Made by a program: the position numbers and the translations under genes. DNA of 64,000 bases from an uncultured candidate division Zixibacteria bacterium (lineage in GTDB: Bacteria; Zixibacteria; MSB-5A5; UBA10806): NCBI GenBank assembly GCA_963817915.1, contig CAWFQL010000009.1:64001-128000 (forward strand), in the 5' to 3' direction. The notes beneath the pieces were generated by a model. It was not told where the DNA came from. It saw only the letters and a list, made by a program, of their open reading frames with translations, and did not search any database. This document shows, piece by piece, positions 15,501 to 48,429 of this stretch (positions are counted from its first letter, which is position 1; each line of letters begins with the position of its first letter).

Positions 15501-16157
15501 ATGCAATCTGATCTATTGAGGGGGGAACCGGATGGCATTATTGGTGTCGACGAGGCCGGTAAGGGTGACTATTTCGGGCCGCTTGTTATCGCTTCATGTT
15601 ATTCTAATAAACTAATCGAGCAGAAATTTGAAGCGATCGGCCTGAAAGAAAGCAAAGCTGTCACCGACAAACGAGCCTTTTTATTAGAATCAGAAATAAA
15701 AAAAATCGCACCATTCGAGGTTATAGCTATCGGCCCCGAAAAATACAATGAGCTATACGATAAAATCAAAAATCTGAATAAGCTTTTAGCCTGGGGCCAT
15801 GCCCGCGCAATCGAGAATCTACTGGAAAAAACAAATCCCATAGAAGTTATCGCGGATCAATTTGGTGATGAGCGGCTTATCCAAAATGCCTTGATGAAAA
15901 AGGGGAGAAGCGTTAATCTAAATCAGCAAACCAAGGCGGAGCGATTCCCCGCGGTGGCGGCGGCATCGATTCTGGCAAGGGCGGAATTTCTTAGGAGGCT
16001 GGAGAAGCTATCCGAAATCTACAAAATTCATCTGCCAAAAGGGGCGGGGACACAGGTCGATGATGCCGGCAGAATATTTGCGAAGTCTAAGGGTACCGAG
16101 GAGCTGAGCAAAATTGCGAAAATCCATTTCAAAAACACCAAAAGAGTCATCGTTTAG
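15501..16157 (+). CDS. rnhC: ribonuclease HIII, catalytic domain only
   Basis: GVDEAGKGDYFGPLV, YNELY..KNLNKLLAWGHARAIENL, ADQFG, KAE..PAVAAASILAR, LPKGAG, KIHFKNT. Confidence 0.88.
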   Translation: MQSDLLRGEPDGIIGVDEAGKGDYFGPLVIASCYSNKLIEQKFEAIGLKESKAVTDKRAFLLESEIKKIAPFEVIAIGPEKYNELYDKIKNLNKLLAWGHARAIENLLEKTNPIEVIADQFGDERLIQNALMKKGRSVNLNQQTKAERFPAVAAASILARAEFLRRLEKLSEIYKIHLPKGAGTQVDDAGRIFAKSKGTEELSKIAKIHFKNTKRVIV

Positions 16158-16998
16158 TAATCGACTGCAGCAAATTCTCCATAATAGAACCGAGGGTGCG
16201 GGTTTTATCGAAAACGCCGCGACCGATTTAATTCTATCAATTATAAATTCTGCTAATCCTGATTCGAAAGAGCTAATAATTAATTCCATCGATAAAATCA
16301 GCGATCGATTTGCCGCAATGGCCAATATCACCAATCTTTCGAATTTTGCACGAGAAAATATTGGATTTTATGAAATCGGCGCGTTCGAATTGATGCTCAA
16401 GGATTATATAAACATATCAAAAATTCTAAAGCAGATTACCGTTATTAACTGTGGCGATTTAATTGAGAAATATAAGACTATCTTCACGCTGTCCAATTCG
16501 TCTATGGTTCGCGAATCTATCTTATATGCCATTTCTAAGGGCTGGAATGGCAAAGTATTGATTATCGAATCCCGCCCAAAAAATGAGGGAGCAATTCTAG
16601 CTTCAAAATTGGCTGAGCACAATATCAATGTCGAATTAGCAGTGGATGCTCTGATGCCAAAATTGATCGCTCAATCGGATGCCGTATTCCTTGGCGCCGA
16701 CACTATCACGCCATCATTTTTTGTCAACAAAATAGGATCTCAAAGCGCGATCGATTACGCCGTCAAATTGGGAAAACCCTGCTATCGTAGCCGCTGATAA
16801 ATCGAAAATGATTTCGGATCGCAGATTCAGATTGAATGAATTCAGGCAATCCGTAGAGGAGATATCGAAAGTTAAAGAGTCCGTCATCTAACTATATTAA
16901 ATCCGTATTTCGAAAAGATAATTCCTGAGGGCGATTTCCATTATATTTGCGGCGCAAGATTGTACAATCCCCAGGAAATTAGAAATCTCTTGAATTAA
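16114..16998 (+). CDS. eIF-2B alpha/beta/delta (MtnA/ribose-bisphosphate isomerase-like) family protein; 3' end frameshifted, start uncertain
   Basis: TLSNSSMV, ESRPKNEG, FLGADTI, NKIGS; shifted frames continue VAADKSK and NPYFEKI to TAA at 16998. Confidence 0.8.
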
Positions 16999-17065
16999 CC
17001 ACATTCAGTTGATAGATTTCATATAAGGTGAAATTAGACCTTCAACATTTTTCTGATCGTATCCT

Positions 17066-18235
17066 ATGGCTGATTTGATCGAAATGACTTTATTAAACCG
17101 CCGACGGTTTTTGAAGACTTCGGGTATTTGTGTTGGATGCAGCCTGGTTCCATTTACCGGTATCTCGGATTTGCCCCTAATATCCGAAGTATTAAATGAA
17201 CCGTTGGCCAGCGCGGAGGAGATCGGGCCACATGAGGCAATGTTTTATAAAAAGCTTCAGGACAGGGAGATCGAATGTCAACTATGCCCTCGCAAATGCC
17301 AGGTAGGCGATAAGGAAAGAGGATATTGCGGAGCGCGAGAAAATCGCGGCGGCAGCTATTACACATTGGTATATGGCAATCCTTGTTCGGCTAATATTGA
17401 TCCGGTAGAGAAGAAACCATTTTTCCATTATATGCCGGGCACACTTGCATTCTCTATCGCCACCGCAGGATGCAATCTAAATTGCAAATTTTGCCAGAAT
17501 TGGCAAATCTCACAATTTAGACCCGAGCAAGTCAAAAGCCTTAAAATGTCACCATCAGATATAGTCTCAACCGCCCTGCAATATGAATGCAGTACGATCG
17601 CCTATACTTACTCGGAGCCGACAGTATTTTATGAATATATGAAAGATTGCGCGATTACCGGAAAATCTAAAAATATACGATCTCTGCTTATCAGCGCGGG
17701 CTATATCGAATCTCAACCTCTACAGGAGCTTTTGCCGTATTTAGCAGCTGTAAAAATCGACTTGAAATCATTCAGCGAGAAATATTATTCTGATATCTGC
17801 AATGGCGAATTGAAACCGGTTCTCGAAACTTTAAAGACATTGAAAAAATCAAATATCTGGTTTGAAATAGTATATCTGATGGTGCCGACCCTAAATGATA
17901 ATCCCGATGAAGTAAAAAATATGTGCCAATGGATTATCGATGATTTGGGGCCTGACGTGCCGATTCATTTCACCAGATTTCATCCTGAATATCTTTTGAC
18001 AAATCTTCCCTCGACACCAGTCGAATCGTTAGAGACCGCATATGACATCGCCAAGGCGAAGGGCATCAATTATCCTTATGTCGGCAATGTATACGGCCAC
18101 AAGGGAGAAAATACGTTTTGCCCGAAATGCGACTCGCTTTTGATTAGCCGTCAGGGCTTTCAAGTACAGATTAAATCATTAGTTAATGGTCATTGCGCGA
18201 AATGCGGAATGGCGATACCGGGTGTCTGGGCTTGA
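17066..18235 (+). CDS. amrS: AmmeMemoRadiSam system radical SAM enzyme with twin-arginine-like N-terminus (start may be ATG 17084)
   Basis: CQLCPRKC..GYCGAR, DPVEKKPFFH, GCNLNCKFCQNWQISQ, AYTYSEP, HFTRFHPEY, C-terminal CPKC..CAKC; N-terminal NRRRFLK. Confidence 0.92.
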   Translation: MADLIEMTLLNRRRFLKTSGICVGCSLVPFTGISDLPLISEVLNEPLASAEEIGPHEAMFYKKLQDREIECQLCPRKCQVGDKERGYCGARENRGGSYYTLVYGNPCSANIDPVEKKPFFHYMPGTLAFSIATAGCNLNCKFCQNWQISQFRPEQVKSLKMSPSDIVSTALQYECSTIAYTYSEPTVFYEYMKDCAITGKSKNIRSLLISAGYIESQPLQELLPYLAAVKIDLKSFSEKYYSDICNGELKPVLETLKTLKKSNIWFEIVYLMVPTLNDNPDEVKNMCQWIIDDLGPDVPIHFTRFHPEYLLTNLPSTPVESLETAYDIAKAKGINYPYVGNVYGHKGENTFCPKCDSLLISRQGFQVQIKSLVNGHCAKCGMAIPGVWA

Positions 18236-20278
18236 ATAATAATTCTCGGCCTTTATCCGACGCGATCACCCTTGGCATAGTCTCAATTGCAACTCAAGTT
18301 ATCTATCTTCGATTCGTATTATCATCCGAAATAGCGGGAGAATTATACGCCGCCTTTCGCAATCGGTGGATGGCTGGCCTGGGTTGGGATCGGCGCATTT
18401 GTAGGAAGGAAGATAGCCTCGAAAAAACCGTCCTTACTGTGGATATTTTCCGGTATTATCAAACTCCCCATTGCGGCTGTAATAATTATCTATCCTTCAT
18501 TTTTTACAGGCATACTTGGCCCATTCCAGTTTCTGCCTTTGGCATTCGGGGTTCTAGCATTGCCAGGCCTTATCTATGGTGTAATTTTTTCTGCTCTGAT
18601 TACCGCTGAAGCAAAAACTTCAATTATTTATAGGTATGAATCTATTGGATCTGTAATCGGTGGATTAGCAGTTACGGCCTGGGCATTCGCGGGATTAGGC
18701 GATATCTATATGTTGGTTATTTTGGCATTGTTGGAGTTTTCGAGGATATTTTCCCGCAGGGCAGTAGCGTTTGGATTTGCAATCATTGCGATTTTGGCCG
18801 GCTACTTAATCCAGCCGCTTATCGAAAGCGCAGTATTTCCTTTAAGGTGGCCGGGCTACGATAAATATGAATCAGCCCATGGGCCGAGCGGCTCGTGGCT
18901 CAAGGCCGAGAAAGCGGAAGAATACTACTTAGCCCATAATGGGCGATTTATTTTTCAGGACAGAGCCTCATCGGAGGATGCAATCCTTTGGCCGCTTTTA
19001 TTCAAACCAGATGCCGTTAAGATGCTTTTAATAAGCTTTGAAGGGAGCCTGGCCTATCAATACTTGCCGAAACATGTAAAGCCTTCGATTTTAATTTCGG
19101 ATGGCACATTTCTACAGTTAGCCGATTTCGATAAGTCTTTGTACCTTCTCGGCGATCCGTTATCCTTTTCTTCTGAGGTGAAATTCGATATCGTGAATAT
19201 ATATTTGCCCGGCGCGGCTAGTATTATTGATTACCGGATGGAAACCGACTATTTCTTCAAGCGATGCAAATCATTTCTAAATTACGACGGTATCTTATAT
19301 GTTTCGTTGCCCTCAGATGAAAATTACCTGGGTGCTAAGCTTTCCAAATATCAATCAGCGGTTTATGGCACTCTAAATTCAATTTTCAGACGGATAGAAA
19401 TAGTCCCGGGTTTGCGGGCCGGGTTTGTCTGTTTCCAAACGGACTCAATTAAATTTGAGTCAAACCTGCTCAATTCGAATATCTCGGCCGCAGGCATAAA
19501 TTCGCCTTATTTCAATAAACAATATATTATGAATATTCTGAATCCATTGCGACGCGCCAATTTCAATGCGTCATTGGATTCTAATGCTACTGCAAATTCT
19601 ACTCAGCGGCCGATGTCGGTTTTGAATTATCTTAAGTGGCAGGGGTCAAAATTTGGCAAGTCCGCGCGAATCTTCGCTATTTTGGACAAGCCATTTATTT
19701 ATCTGGCCTTCGTTTTTTTATTAGTAATTCCATTTTTAATTTCAAGACTCGCAAATACGAATTTCAGATCGTTATTCCTGATTACCGGTGTTGGCTTTAT
19801 TGGAATGGCATTTGAAATATTGATCTTATACCTATTCCAGATATTTTATGGGACTTTGTACCTTCATATCGGAATGATAATCGCAGTTTTCATGGCCGGA
19901 ATATCCATCGGTTCTATTTCATCCGGGAAGCTGACATTTTATCAATTAATTACGGGCAACATTTTGATCGCGATTGGAATATGGCTGTGCCTGAAGGCCG
20001 CCGGCGTTGAAATGGGCTTGCCAATTGGCGGATTTGTATTATATATGGTTTCACTTATGGCGGGTTTTTTCAGCGGAGGGCTATTTTCAAAGACAGTCGA
20101 TAGTCAAAGGGATGACATTCTCTATGGGGCGGTATTCTACGGAACCGATCTCAACGGGGCATTGTTAGCCGCCATTTTTGTCCCGGGATTGCTGATAGCA
20201 CTTGGCGCGGATGGAATAATAATCAGCATAATTTCAATAAGTTTCGCCATTTTGGCAACTTTATCATTCAGAAATTAG
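18232..20278 (+). CDS. membrane protein of the fused MFS/spermidine-synthase-like type; one frameshift near 18356
   Basis: TTG overlaps the amrS stop; GIVSIATQVIYLR, YRYESIGSVIGG, central soluble Rossmann-like domain (FDIV..LP...FF..CKSFLNYDGILYV..SDENY), GFIGMAFEILILYLFQIFYGTLY, YGTDLNGA. Confidence 0.75.
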
Positions 20279-20339
20279 TAGAATAGTCGATGGGATAATG
20301 TGATAGTAATTTATTTTGACAATATTCGATTCAGGAGGA

Positions 20340-22013
20340 ATGATGAAAATTAAACGAAAAATCGGGATTGCAGCCTTAATATCTATAATAGTATTTGGGA
20401 TCTTTGCCGTCTCTATCGCCCAACGGCCGAATGATAATATCTATTCATTGGTAAAATTGTCATCGGATATAGCTTTTAAAATCAATGCGAGATATGTGGA
20501 TAGTCTTGATGTTCAAAGCCTGGTGTACTCGGGCATACGAGGTATGCTCGATAATCTTGATCCATTCTCAGAATTTCTCGAGAAAAAGGATTACGACATT
20601 CTTATGGAAGCGACATCGGGCAAGTACTCGGGGCTCGGAATGACGATTTTCCTCAAGGATAATTGGGTTACGGTGGTTGCTCCCATGGAAGGGACGCCCG
20701 CGTATAGAATGGGTGTTCGAGCAGGCGATAGAATCATTCAAATCGATGATAAATCGGCTAAAGGAATGTCAACTTCGGAAGCATCGAAACTAATGAGAGG
20801 CGAAGCTGGAACAAAGGTTAAGCTTACGATTGAACGGGAAGGGGTGGTCGACCCGCTCGAATATACAATGGAACGAGCCGTCATCACGATCAAGACTGTG
20901 CCATTTTCCGGTGTAATGGATGAGAATGGAAAGAGGATTGGATATATTCGTCTTTCAAGATTTGGCGAGGGCGCCGACAGCGAGCTCGATCAGGCTATCG
21001 AGGAAATGTCACATCAAAAACTCGATGGGCTAATTTTCGATTTACGCTCCAATGGTGGCGGTTTGCTTGATCAGGCGATTAAGGTATCGAATTATTATTT
21101 ACCCAAAGGAACTGAAATAGTTTCGACTAAGGGCAGGACTCCAGATCAGGATAGAGTCAGCTATGCGACTAATGACGCGCTTGTGCCTAAAGTGCCGCTC
21201 GTTGTTTTGGTGAATGAAGGTTCAGCATCGGCATCGGAGATCGTGGCCGGCGCGATTCAGGATTCCGACCGGGGAGTGCTAATCGGAAATACAACATTCG
21301 GCAAAGGCCTGGTGCAGCAAATTTATCAGCTTACCGAAGGCACGGCGTTGAAGCTGACAACCGCAAAATACTATGTGCCATCGGGTAGATGTATTCAAAA
21401 AGATATCCGATCGACCAGACATCCCGAAGACCTCGCTGGCAGTGATACAGTCAAAATCGATTCGACTAAATTAGAAGTATTTCATACGAAATCCGGACGC
21501 AAAGTATACGCGGGGGGCGGCGTGACTCCGGATATCGTTGTCAATCCGGAAAAATTAAATCCGCTCGAAATCAATCTCGAACGCCTTTCGATATTCTTCG
21601 ATTTTTCGATAAAATATACCAATGAACATCCCAAGCTTCCGCCGGATTTTGAGGTTGATGACGCCATAATGAGTGAATTCAAAGATTTCCTAAAAGAAAA
21701 GAAATTCACATATAAGAGCGATCTGGAAAATTCATTGGATCAGATGAAAAAGGTGGCCAAGGATACCGGAAGAGAATCAGCTTTCGCGGCCGAATTTGAT
21801 CGCCTTGCCACAAGTATAAATGCCGATAAGGAAAATGAATTCAATCAAAGCCTCGACTATATAAAACGTTCGATTAAAAGAGATGTTCTCACACGTCTTT
21901 ACAGCGAGTCTGAGGTTTATCGCCAACTGATTCTTAAGACCGACCCATATGTTAAAAAGGCAGTCGAGGTTTTGACATCTCCGAAAGAATATGCCGACAT
22001 TCTCGGCGGATAG
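20340..22013 (+). CDS. ctpA: S41 carboxy-terminal processing protease
   Basis: LDPFS, PDZ GLGM, DLRSNGGGLL, SASASEIVAGAIQD, TFGKGLVQ, LTTAKYY; GGAGG before ATG 20340. Confidence 0.93.
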   Translation: MMKIKRKIGIAALISIIVFGIFAVSIAQRPNDNIYSLVKLSSDIAFKINARYVDSLDVQSLVYSGIRGMLDNLDPFSEFLEKKDYDILMEATSGKYSGLGMTIFLKDNWVTVVAPMEGTPAYRMGVRAGDRIIQIDDKSAKGMSTSEASKLMRGEAGTKVKLTIEREGVVDPLEYTMERAVITIKTVPFSGVMDENGKRIGYIRLSRFGEGADSELDQAIEEMSHQKLDGLIFDLRSNGGGLLDQAIKVSNYYLPKGTEIVSTKGRTPDQDRVSYATNDALVPKVPLVVLVNEGSASASEIVAGAIQDSDRGVLIGNTTFGKGLVQQIYQLTEGTALKLTTAKYYVPSGRCIQKDIRSTRHPEDLAGSDTVKIDSTKLEVFHTKSGRKVYAGGGVTPDIVVNPEKLNPLEINLERLSIFFDFSIKYTNEHPKLPPDFEVDDAIMSEFKDFLKEKKFTYKSDLENSLDQMKKVAKDTGRESAFAAEFDRLATSINADKENEFNQSLDYIKRSIKRDVLTRLYSESEVYRQLILKTDPYVKKAVEVLTSPKEYADILGG

Positions 22014-47344: not shown

Positions 47345-47435
47345 TACGATGCGTCACTTCAAGACGTGAATCGCAAGTATCAGACATTCATACATATTCT
47401 TGCATTATTCTCATATAATGAATATCTTTAATACT

Positions 47436-48429
47436 ATGGAAAAGATCGAGGCCAGATATTATGAAAAACTGGATTCGGAAAAGGTCCATTGCCATCTCTG
47501 CCCGGCTGAATGTAAAATCGCGCCCGGGCATAATGGTATCTGCATGATCCGTTCCAATGATAATGGCACTTTATACGCGTCCGAATACGGAAACACCGTA
47601 GCTTTAAATCTCGATCCTATTGAAAAGAAGCCGCTGTACCATTTCAAGCCGGGAAGCCAAATTCTATCGATCGGCCCGAACGGCTGCAATTTCGCCTGTG
47701 CATTTTGTCAGAATTGGACAATATCACAGGAGCACGCAAACAGCAGATATATTTCGCCTGATGACCTTGTAAAATTGGCCGGAAGCAATGGCTCTATAGG
47801 AGTTGCCTACACATACACGGAACCGTTAATCTGGTTTGAATATGTCCTCGATACTGCAAAATTGTTGAAATCCGGCAGGATTGTGTACAGTGATTGTCTC
47901 CAATGGCTATATTAACGAAGAACCTGCCAGAGAATTATTCCGCTATATCGACGCCGCCAATATCGATCTAAAATCGATCAGGCCTGATTTTTATCGGAAA
48001 GTATGCAAAGGCAAATTGGCCGATGTTCAGAGGACGATAAATATCGCCTTGGAAATGGGAGTTCATGTCGAATTGACCAATCTGCTGATTCCCAATTATA
48101 ACGATACTGAAGACGAAATCCGTGAATTGGTCAATTGGGTATCTGAGCTTGATCCAACTCCCGTTCTGCATTTTTCGCGGTATTTCCCCAATTATAAACT
48201 CGAAGCCCCGCCGACCTCCCCGGACAAGCTCAAATATGCTTATGACACGGCCAGGGCGAAGCTAAAATATGTATATTTAGGCAATATATCCGGAGTTGGA
48301 AATCCAGATACTGTTTGCAATAAATGCGGAACTGTCTTAATAAAAAGATCAAATTATGATATTGAAATTACTGGCCTTAATGGCAATAAATGCGCGAATT
48401 GCGAAGAAAAAATCGATGTGGTGACATGA
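47436..48429 (+). CDS. amrS: second AmmeMemoRadiSam radical SAM enzyme (no signal peptide); frameshift near 47872
   Basis: CHLCPAEC, DPIEKKPLYHF, GCNFACAFCQNWTISQ, AYTYTEP; continues SNGYI, ANIDLK, HFSRYFP, YVYLGN, CNKC..CANC. Confidence 0.9.

Follow-up and report, generated by a model that had tools for sequence, protein, structure and literature searches.

A radical SAM enzyme of the AmrS type that begins with a twin-arginine leader and overlaps the gene of a polytopic membrane protein raises the question whether radical SAM chemistry could take place outside the inner membrane, and which neighboring genes would belong to such a system. We analyzed this arrangement in a stretch of 64,000 nucleotides, referred to as the window. 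An initial annotation had described an AmrS with an extra Tat-like N-terminus of about 45 residues and a paralogue near 47436 without leader, and both descriptions hold for the following features.

17066..18235, + strand: AmrS-type radical SAM enzyme with N-terminal export leader, 389 aa (TIGR04337, PF04055)
17066..17215, + strand: twin-arginine leader, AmrS residues 1-50, with RRRFLK at 17099-17116, an h-region and ASA before E51 (read from the sequence)
17471..17494, + strand: CxxxCxxC radical SAM cluster motif, CNLNCKFC, AmrS residues 136-143 (likewise read off directly)
47400..48429, + strand: second AmrS paralogue, leaderless, with a frameshift near 47880-47915 (TIGR04337 matches in two frames; open reading frames)

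The enzyme matches TIGR04337, a model of the type 'hypoth_equivalog', with 379.4 bits (cut-off 220; model positions 2-333 of 349), and the cluster cysteines C136, C140 and C143 together with two more four-Cys groups are invariant in an alignment of 14 sequences (A2). The next-best radical SAM families are the glycyl-radical-enzyme activases of the PflA and NrdG kind (TIGR02493, 62.5 bits; TIGR02495, 55.9 bits), but both models stay far below their cut-offs on AmrS, the PflA/NrdG activases are cytoplasmic, and AmrS has features of its own in A2, namely an additional four-Cys group on the N-terminal side and a CxxC...CxxC ribbon at the C-terminus. The TIGR04337 match covers residues 59-388 and thus starts only behind the extra residues 1-50, which read M-ADLIEMTLLN-RRRFLK-TSGICVGCSLVPF...LASA before EE. 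All elements of a Tat signal, the RR motif, a moderately hydrophobic h-region (mean hydropathy 1.06) and an A-x-A site, precede the mature domain. The paralogue at 47400-48429 begins with MEKIEARYYEKL, lacks a leader and is additionally split by its frameshift.

Conservation of the RR motif in orthologues, which the initial annotation had named as a check, was found at the level of the coding sequence: the motif is present in 108 of the 120 best AmrS homologues, and none of the 25 complete AmrS N-termini from loci of the phylum lacks it. The remaining 12 homologues are N-terminally shortened gene calls, and the motif is not a chance occurrence. An A-x-A site follows 12-48 residues past the RR in 71 of these 108 homologues, and RR plus h-region is found in 64 of 80 AmrS loci of other phyla. 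About 11 of these 80 relatives carry a Sec-like leader without RR, which does not fit easily with an exported iron-sulfur enzyme. The anatomy of the leader is the same as in Tat-exported iron-sulfur proteins (hydrogenase small subunits, the DmsA/DmsB type, Rieske proteins), in which an RRxFLK leader sits on a cofactor protein that must fold prior to export. By this signal AmrS is predicted to cross to the periplasmic side in folded form, including its iron-sulfur clusters. In contrast to the Tat-exported redox enzymes AmrS needs the diffusible co-substrate SAM, and our literature search yielded no description of a radical SAM enzyme that is exported by Tat.

To our knowledge, SAM and low-potential reductant, both of which radical SAM enzymes need, are known only in the cytoplasm. 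This would suit a leader that is an anchor or a relic without export, with AmrS working next to the transporter on the cytoplasmic side of the membrane, as would the leaders without RR in some relatives and the failure to find TatC in the source genome (93.9% complete), in which a TatA gene was found. A linked DUF362 partner, whose Tat leader is seen in some phyla but is lacking in Zixibacteria and Aminicenantes, fits the same picture. However, 118 of 121 genomes of the phylum do have TatC, a positive n-region ahead of the h-region dictates an N-in, C-out orientation, and the A-x-A sites, the Sec-type leader of the Memo-AMMECR1 partner and the predicted outside location of the partner's soluble domain (both described below) also speak against it, so that we regard a leader without export as quite unlikely.

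The gene directly downstream encodes a candidate partner of AmrS.

18202..20278, + strand: MFS-fold membrane protein with inserted spermidine-synthase-like domain, main frame 18335-20278 (frames, predicted structure)
18848..19690, + strand: spermidine-synthase-fold domain, residues 172-452 of the 647-aa frame (Foldseek, profile against the PDB, motif comparison, positive-inside alternation)

The TTGA overlap reported for the two genes exists insofar as the AmrS stop (18233-18235) overlaps an in-frame TTG at 18232, an alternative start, but the ATG at 18202 is the likelier start because the relatives align as MR plus 23 residues ahead of a conserved LG; the genes would then overlap by 34 bases. 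The membrane gene requires a single frame change, at a frameshift near 18355, and the membrane proteins of the relatives are encoded in a single frame (691-744 aa). Because of this frameshift the gene may be broken in the source organism. It is conceivable that the locus as a whole is decaying there, with real frameshifts in both the membrane gene and an upstream eIF2B-like gene and a pair that no longer works. Three frame changes in 2.3 kb (16114-18360), and one more in the second AmrS, would agree with that, as would the intact flanking EF-P, RNase HII, AmrS and S41 peptidase genes. Against decay, the frames behind the shifts are open over their full length, which is 647 aa in the case of the membrane gene, and share 40-45% identity with the relatives, which is the pattern of assembly indels or very recent events; we therefore consider decay unlikely.

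The predicted structure of the 647-aa frame (pLDDT 85.2, pTM 0.87), which lacks helix 1 owing to the frameshift, confirms the polytopic protein with a central SAM-fold-like domain that had been read from the window, and specifies the domain as a spermidine synthase fold. The transmembrane part of the model (residues 1-647) has an MFS fold with matches to many MFS structures (Z 23.2-20, about 290-300 residues aligned, rmsd 3.2-4.0; top match Z 23.2, rmsd 3.2-3.4, about 297 residues), and the frame has no match in Pfam or NCBIfam at E <= 0.01. Two extra hydrophobic helices (142-171 and 453-473) flank the inserted domain, and the K+R counts alternate between high and low across all 14 helices, both in a set of 31 sequences and in a second, separate set of 24 from other phyla. 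MFS halves have both ends in the cytoplasm. From the positive-inside alternation, the MFS fold and the flanking helices the domain is predicted to face the periplasm, with the two extra helices pushing it outside.

The domain consists of the N-terminal beta domain and the Rossmann domain of spermidine synthases, and residues ~166-450 match SpeE (PDB 1uir, 3o4f, 1inl). Foldseek returned 1uir with E 2.3e-7 (TM 0.62-0.65 on the target), the structural match to SpeE has Z 22.9 over 261 aligned residues, and a domain profile reached SpeE in the PDB with E 1.7e-15. The identity to SpeE is only 13-16%, though, and in contrast to SpeE the domain sits inside a transporter and is predicted to be extracytoplasmic. 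Of the hallmarks of the spermidine synthase/aminopropyltransferase families PF01564 and TIGR00417, the GGG(D/E)G loop and the acidic ribose-binding residue for dcSAM are missing, their positions being occupied by LLISFEGS and ILISDG, whereas the partners of other phyla have LLIGGGxxG and VELDP; likewise the catalytic D-x-x-D-P motif is replaced by NIYLPGA, compared with NLPDP in other phyla. In the Zixibacteria clade GGGxG, VELDP, DG and DP are thus swapped for FEGS, ISDG, GDP and LPGA, and the partner's FEGS and LPGA stand where SpeE has GGG(D/E)G and DxxDP. In most other phyla the domain retains the SAM-type Rossmann set GGGxxG, VELDP, DGR and NLPDP. The proposal that the membrane partner binds SAM consequently fits the partners of other phyla, in which the motifs are intact, but in this clade, where they are lost, the sequence no longer speaks directly for SAM handling.

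The window's protein shares its build of an MFS transporter plus SpeE fold with the fused MFS/spermidine synthases of NF037959 and with the membrane-bound 'polyamine aminopropyltransferase' PRK03612 (NF002956), but other residues stand in place of their glycine-rich loop, ribose-binding acid and catalytic D-P motif. AmrS partners of other phyla scored 67.9, 58.2 and 54.8 bits against NF037959, a fourth 39.0 (cut-off 40), and they also match PF01564. The window's protein did not reach the 40 bits and a class-mate scored 26.1 bits, but an HMM of alignment A1 identifies it as homologous to the other-phylum partners. By these comparisons it is homologous to the NF037959 family but too diverged for the model. 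A tested function was found in the literature for no fused MFS/spermidine synthase member.

The pairing of both genes is directly visible in the gene order. In 28 of 29 loci of relatives the membrane gene immediately follows AmrS, and in 285 genomes of the phylum the tallies of the two genes per family nearly coincide (48 of 108 genomes for each in family f7, zero for both in f5, f6, f9 and f13). Outside the phylum the membrane partner family is found at most 4 kb from AmrS in 41 of 80 loci covering more than 10 phyla. The co-occurrence of RR-bearing AmrS with this membrane family, recommended for a survey by the initial annotation, is therefore real, although such counts overstate the support because kin are not independent. 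A complex prediction of AmrS residues 59-389 with domain residues 172-452 gave a median score of 0.56 (runs 0.64, 0.56 and 0.51) compared with 0.01 for the best of three controls; the contacts agree to at least 91% between runs and the pLDDT of the partner is at least 75. Of 157 solved complexes 116 attain the pass mark, compared with 2 of 215 mismatched pairs, and passing scores of 0.60 or less comprise only 18 of the 157 solved complexes plus both of these mismatches. These counts apply only approximately here, since the prediction used our own alignments. This weak pass lends weak support to a physical contact between AmrS and the domain.

AmmeMemoRadiSam systems combine AmrS with a Memo-like protein B (TIGR04336) and an AMMECR1-like protein A (TIGR04335). 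As noted before, the window holds neither AmrA nor AmrB; the Memo and AMMECR1 matches of the genome are confined to another contig (C18), where a single, non-adjacent Memo-AMMECR1 (AmrB-AmrA) fusion starts with MNRLLLTAILIIASFSCANA, a Sec-type leader. In 29 of 80 loci of other phyla the leader-bearing AmrS has such a fusion, matching TIGR04336 and TIGR04335, as its neighbor, and among 30 AmrS-adjacent fusions the 27 complete N-termini mostly show a hydrophobic leader as judged by eye, the other three being fragments. With an AmrS far above the TIGR04337 cut-off and one Memo-AMMECR1 fusion the system resembles AmmeMemoRadiSam, but it differs in the twin-arginine leader on AmrS, the Sec-type leader on the fusion, the MFS/spermidine-synthase-like protein as a regular extra partner and the spread of its parts over three contigs of the source genome. 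As the fusion on the other contig carries a Sec-type leader, we predict that the leader-bearing AmrS and its membrane partner are the local form of an exported AmmeMemoRadiSam system. That exported AmrS, the membrane partner and Memo-AMMECR1 make up an extracytoplasmic version of AmmeMemoRadiSam is, in our estimation, fairly probable. The observation of the initial annotation is confirmed, and its interpretation is partly supported.

The conserved leader and the phylum-wide pairing with a transporter-like protein lead to the prediction of radical SAM chemistry outside the inner membrane. There AmrS would cooperate with the product of the overlapping gene, and the Memo-AMMECR1 fusion would join the pair. 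The MFS part may move SAM, or the substrate of the system, across the membrane, and the outside domain may present it to AmrS or dock the enzyme; we prefer this mechanism tentatively and give it clearly less than an even chance. We infer that the partner may supply SAM, which is more attractive given the MFS transporter fold. The fold itself is uninformative on SAM, because the closest MFS structures carry cargos as different as choline, monoamines, nitrate and lipids. These cargos are also compatible with an MFS part that moves a substrate or product of the pathway, e.g. a lipid-linked or small envelope precursor, the SAM leaving bound to folded AmrS or coming from another source. Linkage and topology agree equally well with such a cargo and we know of no MFS-type SAM carrier, but the intact Rossmann set in most other phyla and the matches of their partners to PF01564 and NF037959 above the respective cut-offs point to a nucleotide cofactor needed outside, and we consider a cargo other than SAM possible but doubtful. 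Within the preferred mechanism, the outside domain of this clade would act only as a docking piece without nucleotide-binding motifs. The full version, with periplasmic catalysis, an MFS half exporting SAM, a domain passing it to AmrS and a derived docking piece in Zixibacteria, seems rather doubtful to us as well. If it were true, the gene pair would form the core of an extracytoplasmic SAM economy, the first one known; a literature search found no paper on an exported AmrS-membrane system.

The remaining question is whether further neighbors belong to the system.

15501..16157, + strand: RNase HII, upstream end of an order-level synteny block (PF01351, E 1.5e-33)
16114..16998, + strand: eIF2B/MtnA-superfamily gene with two frameshifts in three frames, 16114-16797, 16736-16891 and 16876-16998 (PF01008)
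20316..22013, + strand: S41 C-terminal processing peptidase with PDZ domain (PF03572, E 9.6e-55)

MtnA-type isomerases act in the salvage of SAM by-products, and it had been proposed that exported AmrS, a SAM-binding membrane partner and an isomerase recycling 5'-deoxyadenosine or MTA form a module of three genes. The gene just upstream does match PF01008 (73.7 bits, cut-off 22.4; residues 95-223 of the first frame), but it is spread over three frames and falls into no named subfamily: the first, truncated frame scored 26.8 bits against MtnA (TIGR00512, cut-off 279) and 52.6 against R15P isomerase (TIGR00511, cut-off 314), and over the MtnA, R15P-isomerase and eIF2B models the scores are 27-54 bits with cut-offs of 186-528. 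The orthologue of the relatives, which was scanned against Pfam, is one intact frame of 292 aa (e.g. L043:5265-6140). The adjacency of the three genes in the window recurs in 6 of 8 relatives of the same family, where the eIF2B-like gene is likewise placed between RNase HII and AmrS. The sister family shows this order in only 1 of 2 relatives and none of 4 other families shows it, and all loci without the gene (2/8, 1/2 and 4/4) retain the AmrS-membrane pair. PF01008 is not among the recurrent neighbor families in the 80 loci of other phyla, and the by-product would form across the membrane from the isomerase. The synteny survey largely refutes the three-gene module, which we consider very improbable, and the eIF2B-like gene, a case of order-level synteny broken here by two frameshifts, was rejected as a part of the system and is likely a bystander. 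At the other end, the S41 peptidase is the downstream neighbor only in families f1 and f2.

The initial annotation had assigned an additional, Tat-type N-terminal leader to the AmrS of this locus, which was borne out by comparison with the family model: the protein matches TIGR04337 with 379 bits (cut-off 220) only from residue 59, and the first 50 residues, MADLIEMTLLN-RRRFLK-TSGICVGCSLVPFTGISDLPLISEVLNEPLASA followed by EE, show twin arginines in the n-region, then a segment of moderate hydrophobicity and an A-x-A site. The gene lies in an order-level synteny block of EF-P, RNase HII, an eIF2B-like gene, AmrS, a membrane gene and an S41 peptidase. The source genome G000 (3.33 Mb, 22 contigs, 93.9% complete; the window is G000:C9:64001-128000) was assigned to Zixibacteria from the source names of the closest homologues.

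Features of the locus (positions within the window)
15501-16157, + strand, RNase HII
from 16114, + strand, eIF2B-superfamily gene
17066-18235, + strand, AmrS
to 20278, + strand, polytopic membrane gene
18848-19690, spermidine-synthase-like domain of the membrane protein, SAM-type motifs lost
20316-22013, + strand, S41 peptidase

Conservation of the RRxFL motif in orthologues was confirmed, as an arginine pair followed by a hydrophobic pair is present within the first 45 residues of 108 of the 120 best AmrS homologues, the other 12 being truncated gene calls whose start falls inside or past the leader, and RR occurs in all 25 complete N-termini from loci of the phylum. An A-x-A site follows 12-48 residues past the RR in 71 of the 108 RR-bearing homologues, and the mean Kyte-Doolittle hydropathy over the 16 residues past RRxF is 1.06 (108 homologues), which fits Tat and not Sec leaders. 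A true start downstream of the RR motif would have to use M59 (HEAMFYKK), the sole in-frame methionine able to bypass the leader. Homologues carry Q, E, K or A at this position, and since M59 is not conserved the upstream start is upheld. TatA is encoded in G000 at C17:516555-516704. A PF00902 search gave no match for TatC in this genome, and the neighbourhood of TatA (L037) contains no TatC-like ORF; because of the incompleteness of the genome we do not take the missing match as absence. TatC is found in 118 of the 121 phylum genomes sampled.

About 11 of 80 AmrS relatives from other phyla (Omnitrophota, Elusimicrobia and others; loci L102, L105, L111, L114, L120, L123, L124, L128, L131, L133 and L135) have leaders without RR, which are classical Sec-like or lipoprotein-like, e.g. 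MKKSLLLLILLLSVLFPAIGA followed by DQ. With Sec, an iron-sulfur enzyme would be exported unfolded, which is difficult to account for, and these leaders sit badly with an export of AmrS.

The membrane gene directly downstream can be read through only with a single shift of frame near 18355 (frame 1 from 18193, frame 2 open at 18335-20278, 647 aa), and in relatives it is a single frame of 691-744 aa. According to the alignment with these relatives, the gene most likely starts at ATG 18202 and overlaps AmrS by 34 bases. The proposed overlap with the AmrS stop thus holds with either start, but the TTG at 18232 is the less likely one. For further analysis we used an alignment (A1) of 31 rows, made up of the window frame plus 23 sequences from the 29 relatives' loci and 7 from 16 database proteins; L008, L009 and L013 were excluded due to unclear starts and L017, L018 and L028 due to truncation. 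Pfam and NCBIfam gave no match for the membrane protein of the window, and fold comparison and profile search were used instead. In the structure model derived from A1 (pLDDT 85.2, pTM 0.87) residues ~172-452 have a spermidine synthase fold (Foldseek hit 1uir, E 2.3e-7, identity 13-16%), in line with a profile match to SpeE in the PDB (E 1.7e-15), and the helices have the fold of an MFS transporter, with a Z of 23.2 to FLVCR and VMAT2 over ~297 aligned residues (rmsd 3.2-3.4). Counting helices crudely by Kyte-Doolittle hydropathy gave 10 to 14 depending on the sequence, and this count was dropped in favor of the model helices.

MFS halves have both ends in the cytoplasm. Since a further hydrophobic helix flanks the inserted domain on either side (142-171 and 453-473), the spermidine-synthase-like domain is predicted to face outside. 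Independently of this, the mean number of K+R per loop alternates across the whole protein in A1: 2.4 in the N-tail and 0.0, 1.1, 0.03, 1.8, 0.2 and 1.5 in the loops of the N-terminal half, followed past the inserted domain by 1.2, 0.0, 0.3, 0.1, 0.5 and 0.0 in the C-terminal half and 0.8 in the C-tail. The alternation becomes sharper if the count takes in three residues at each helix end, and it is seen in 11 Zixibacteria-type and 24 other-phylum sequences (the frame-broken rows L081 and L120 were excluded).

Linkage of the two genes extends far beyond the window. AmrS is located directly upstream of the membrane gene in the 30 best loci (the window and 29 relatives) with the exception of L023 (G245:C149), where a TPR-like ORF takes this place and the AmrS orthologue is found on another contig (G245:C116:1341-2468). 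Matches to the membrane protein are present in 173 and AmrS orthologues (E <= 1e-100) in 166 of the 285 phylum genomes. The tallies by family are nearly identical, with membrane protein and AmrS in 11 and 10 of 13 genomes in f1, 6 and 5 of 21 in f3, 48 and 48 of 108 in f7, 11 and 11 of 14 in f8, and neither in f5 (0/3), f6 (0/3), f9 (0/5) and f13 (0/2); as kin are not independent, this co-occurrence is a pattern and not a statistic. A scan beyond the phylum with a 14-row AmrS alignment yielded the 80 loci, from Acidobacteriota, Aminicenantes, Planctomycetota (including Brocadia), Omnitrophota, Elusimicrobia, Desulfobacterota-type MAGs, Caldithrix, KSB1, Latescibacterota and others. The suggested pairing of leader-bearing AmrS with this membrane family recurs here: the family (A1 HMM, E < 1e-15) is encoded same-strand downstream or convergent in 41 of the 80 loci, and in 28 of the 54 whose flanks extend at least 2.5 kb to either side. 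The S41 peptidase follows the pair in families f1 and f2 only and was rejected as a fourth member of the system.

The assumption that the membrane partner binds SAM stands for other phyla at the level of motifs, but not for the clade of the window. Partners from other phyla retain LLIGGGxxG, VELDP, DGR and NLPDP and match PF01564 (E 1e-21 to 1e-29); against NF037959, the fused MFS/spermidine synthase model (cut-off 40), three of four score 54.8-67.9 bits and the fourth 39.0. In the window and its class the corresponding positions read LLISFEGS, ILISDG, LGDP and NIYLPGA. Judged by these replacements, the domain is a degenerate copy in this clade that is no aminopropyltransferase and is unlikely to bind SAM. 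The SAM-type motifs are lost throughout the sampled Zixibacteria and kept in most phyla (L065, L126, L061 and others); the transporter half is conserved.

A possible contact between AmrS and this domain was assessed by complex prediction for AmrS residues 59-389 and the isolated domain (residues 172-452), each with its own alignment. The median score was 0.56 (runs 0.64, 0.56 and 0.51) compared with 0.01 for the best of three controls, contacts agreed to at least 91% between runs, the partner pLDDT was at least 75, and the result was classed as weak support. The pass mark is attained by 116 of 157 solved complexes and 2 of 215 mismatched pairs, and scores <= 0.60 include only 18 of the 157 solved complexes and both passing mismatches; these counts apply approximately, as custom alignments were used. 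With translational coupling and co-occurrence already strongly favoring a contact, the prediction adds modest support.

The eIF2B/MtnA-like isomerase, which had been proposed as third member of the module, could not be retained. Upstream flanks of 6-7 kb were surveyed at 14 of the 29 relatives' loci, and an eIF2B-like gene separates RNase HII from AmrS in six of eight genomes of the same family, one of two of the sister family and none of four of other families. The sister-family genome with this gene also has an inserted DUF4382 gene, and in the loci of other families DUF362 takes its place upstream in three of four. DUF4382 and DUF362 were rejected as upstream members for the window, since neither is present at its locus. 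Furthermore, the eIF2B-like gene reaches only 27-54 bits against MtnA, R15P-isomerase and eIF2B models (cut-offs 186-528), and it occupies three frames in the window and a single 292-aa frame in relatives (L043:5265-6140). In the window (16114-16157) as well as in relatives the last 44 bases of RNase HII also belong to the eIF2B-like frame. The two genes are likely co-transcribed, which points to housekeeping synteny and not to a connection with AmrS, and by gene order the eIF2B-like gene appears to be a bystander in the synteny block. Altogether, four frame changes affect three genes of this 64-kb window, two in the eIF2B-like gene (16770-16900), one in the membrane gene (18340-18360) and one in the second AmrS (47880-47915). 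As the frames stay open and alignable past each shift, these may be either assembly indel errors or very recent hits on the genes. Neither public sequencing runs nor RNA data were listed for 16000-20400.

AmmeMemoRadiSam is among the most widespread uncharacterised radical SAM systems, and the biochemistry of the human homologues of AMMECR1 and Memo is unclear. We clustered the neighbours in the 80 other-phylum loci and scanned one representative per cluster. Memo-AMMECR1 fusions lie near AmrS in 29 of the loci, and a hydrophobic leader, judged by eye, is present in most of 27 complete N-termini (three more members are fragments); other recurrent neighbours are DUF362 (17 loci), DUF6599 (7), DsbD_2 (6) and polyferredoxin (5). 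The only Memo-AMMECR1 copy of G000 is located on contig C18 (527 aa, N-terminus MNRLLLTAILIIASFSCANA). Leaders on AmrS and Memo-AMMECR1 together with the membrane partner indicate that the genome carries a local, dispersed form of the AmmeMemoRadiSam system with export or membrane signals on all parts.

To our knowledge, radical SAM enzymes are viewed as purely cytoplasmic, since this is the compartment in which SAM, reductant and iron-sulfur assembly occur. We infer that AmrS would be folded and cluster-loaded in the cytoplasm, exported via Tat, and act outside alongside Memo-AMMECR1, itself exported by Sec, and the membrane partner. The key question is why a transporter is fused to an outward-facing SAM-type domain. 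We prefer, as a rather doubtful prediction, that the MFS half carries SAM or a substrate out and that the outer domain receives this cargo next to AmrS. A large multi-phylum branch of AmmeMemoRadiSam bears an export or membrane signal on every part and has a transporter fused to a SAM-type domain as regular partner. If true, either SAM gets to the periplasm or the enzyme operates in an unforeseen manner, and the likely target, an envelope or periplasmic molecule, would offer a new handle on the system. For the window, the analysis tells the module of AmrS and membrane protein apart from the eIF2B-like bystander and reveals the loss of the partner's SAM motifs in this clade.

Our literature search, with subscription journals outside its coverage, turned up no paper describing an AmrS with a leader, radical SAM enzymes of the periplasm or a fused MFS/spermidine synthase. 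Mentions of AmmeMemoRadiSam in the papers listed are incidental annotations, and PMC10924467 names a radical SAM neighbour that is unrelated. The system is of the AmmeMemoRadiSam kind, set apart by its leaders and its fused MFS/spermidine-synthase-like partner.

The DUF362 gene frequently comes directly before that of leader-bearing AmrS, and its product starts with a twin-arginine leader in loci from Caldithrix, KSB1 and Acidobacteriota (L063, L066, L070, L072) but not in those from Zixibacteria and Aminicenantes (L053, L054, L071, L079, L086, L109), including the orthologue on contig C11 of G000 (L138:1258-2199). The protein could be exported together with AmrS or act across the membrane from it. 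A membrane polyferredoxin (Fer4_5-type) and DsbD_2 also recur near leader-bearing AmrS, with examples at L052:9676-11490 (- strand), L082:365-2056 (+ strand) and L135:6754-7404 (+ strand), and both are candidate electron routes across the membrane.
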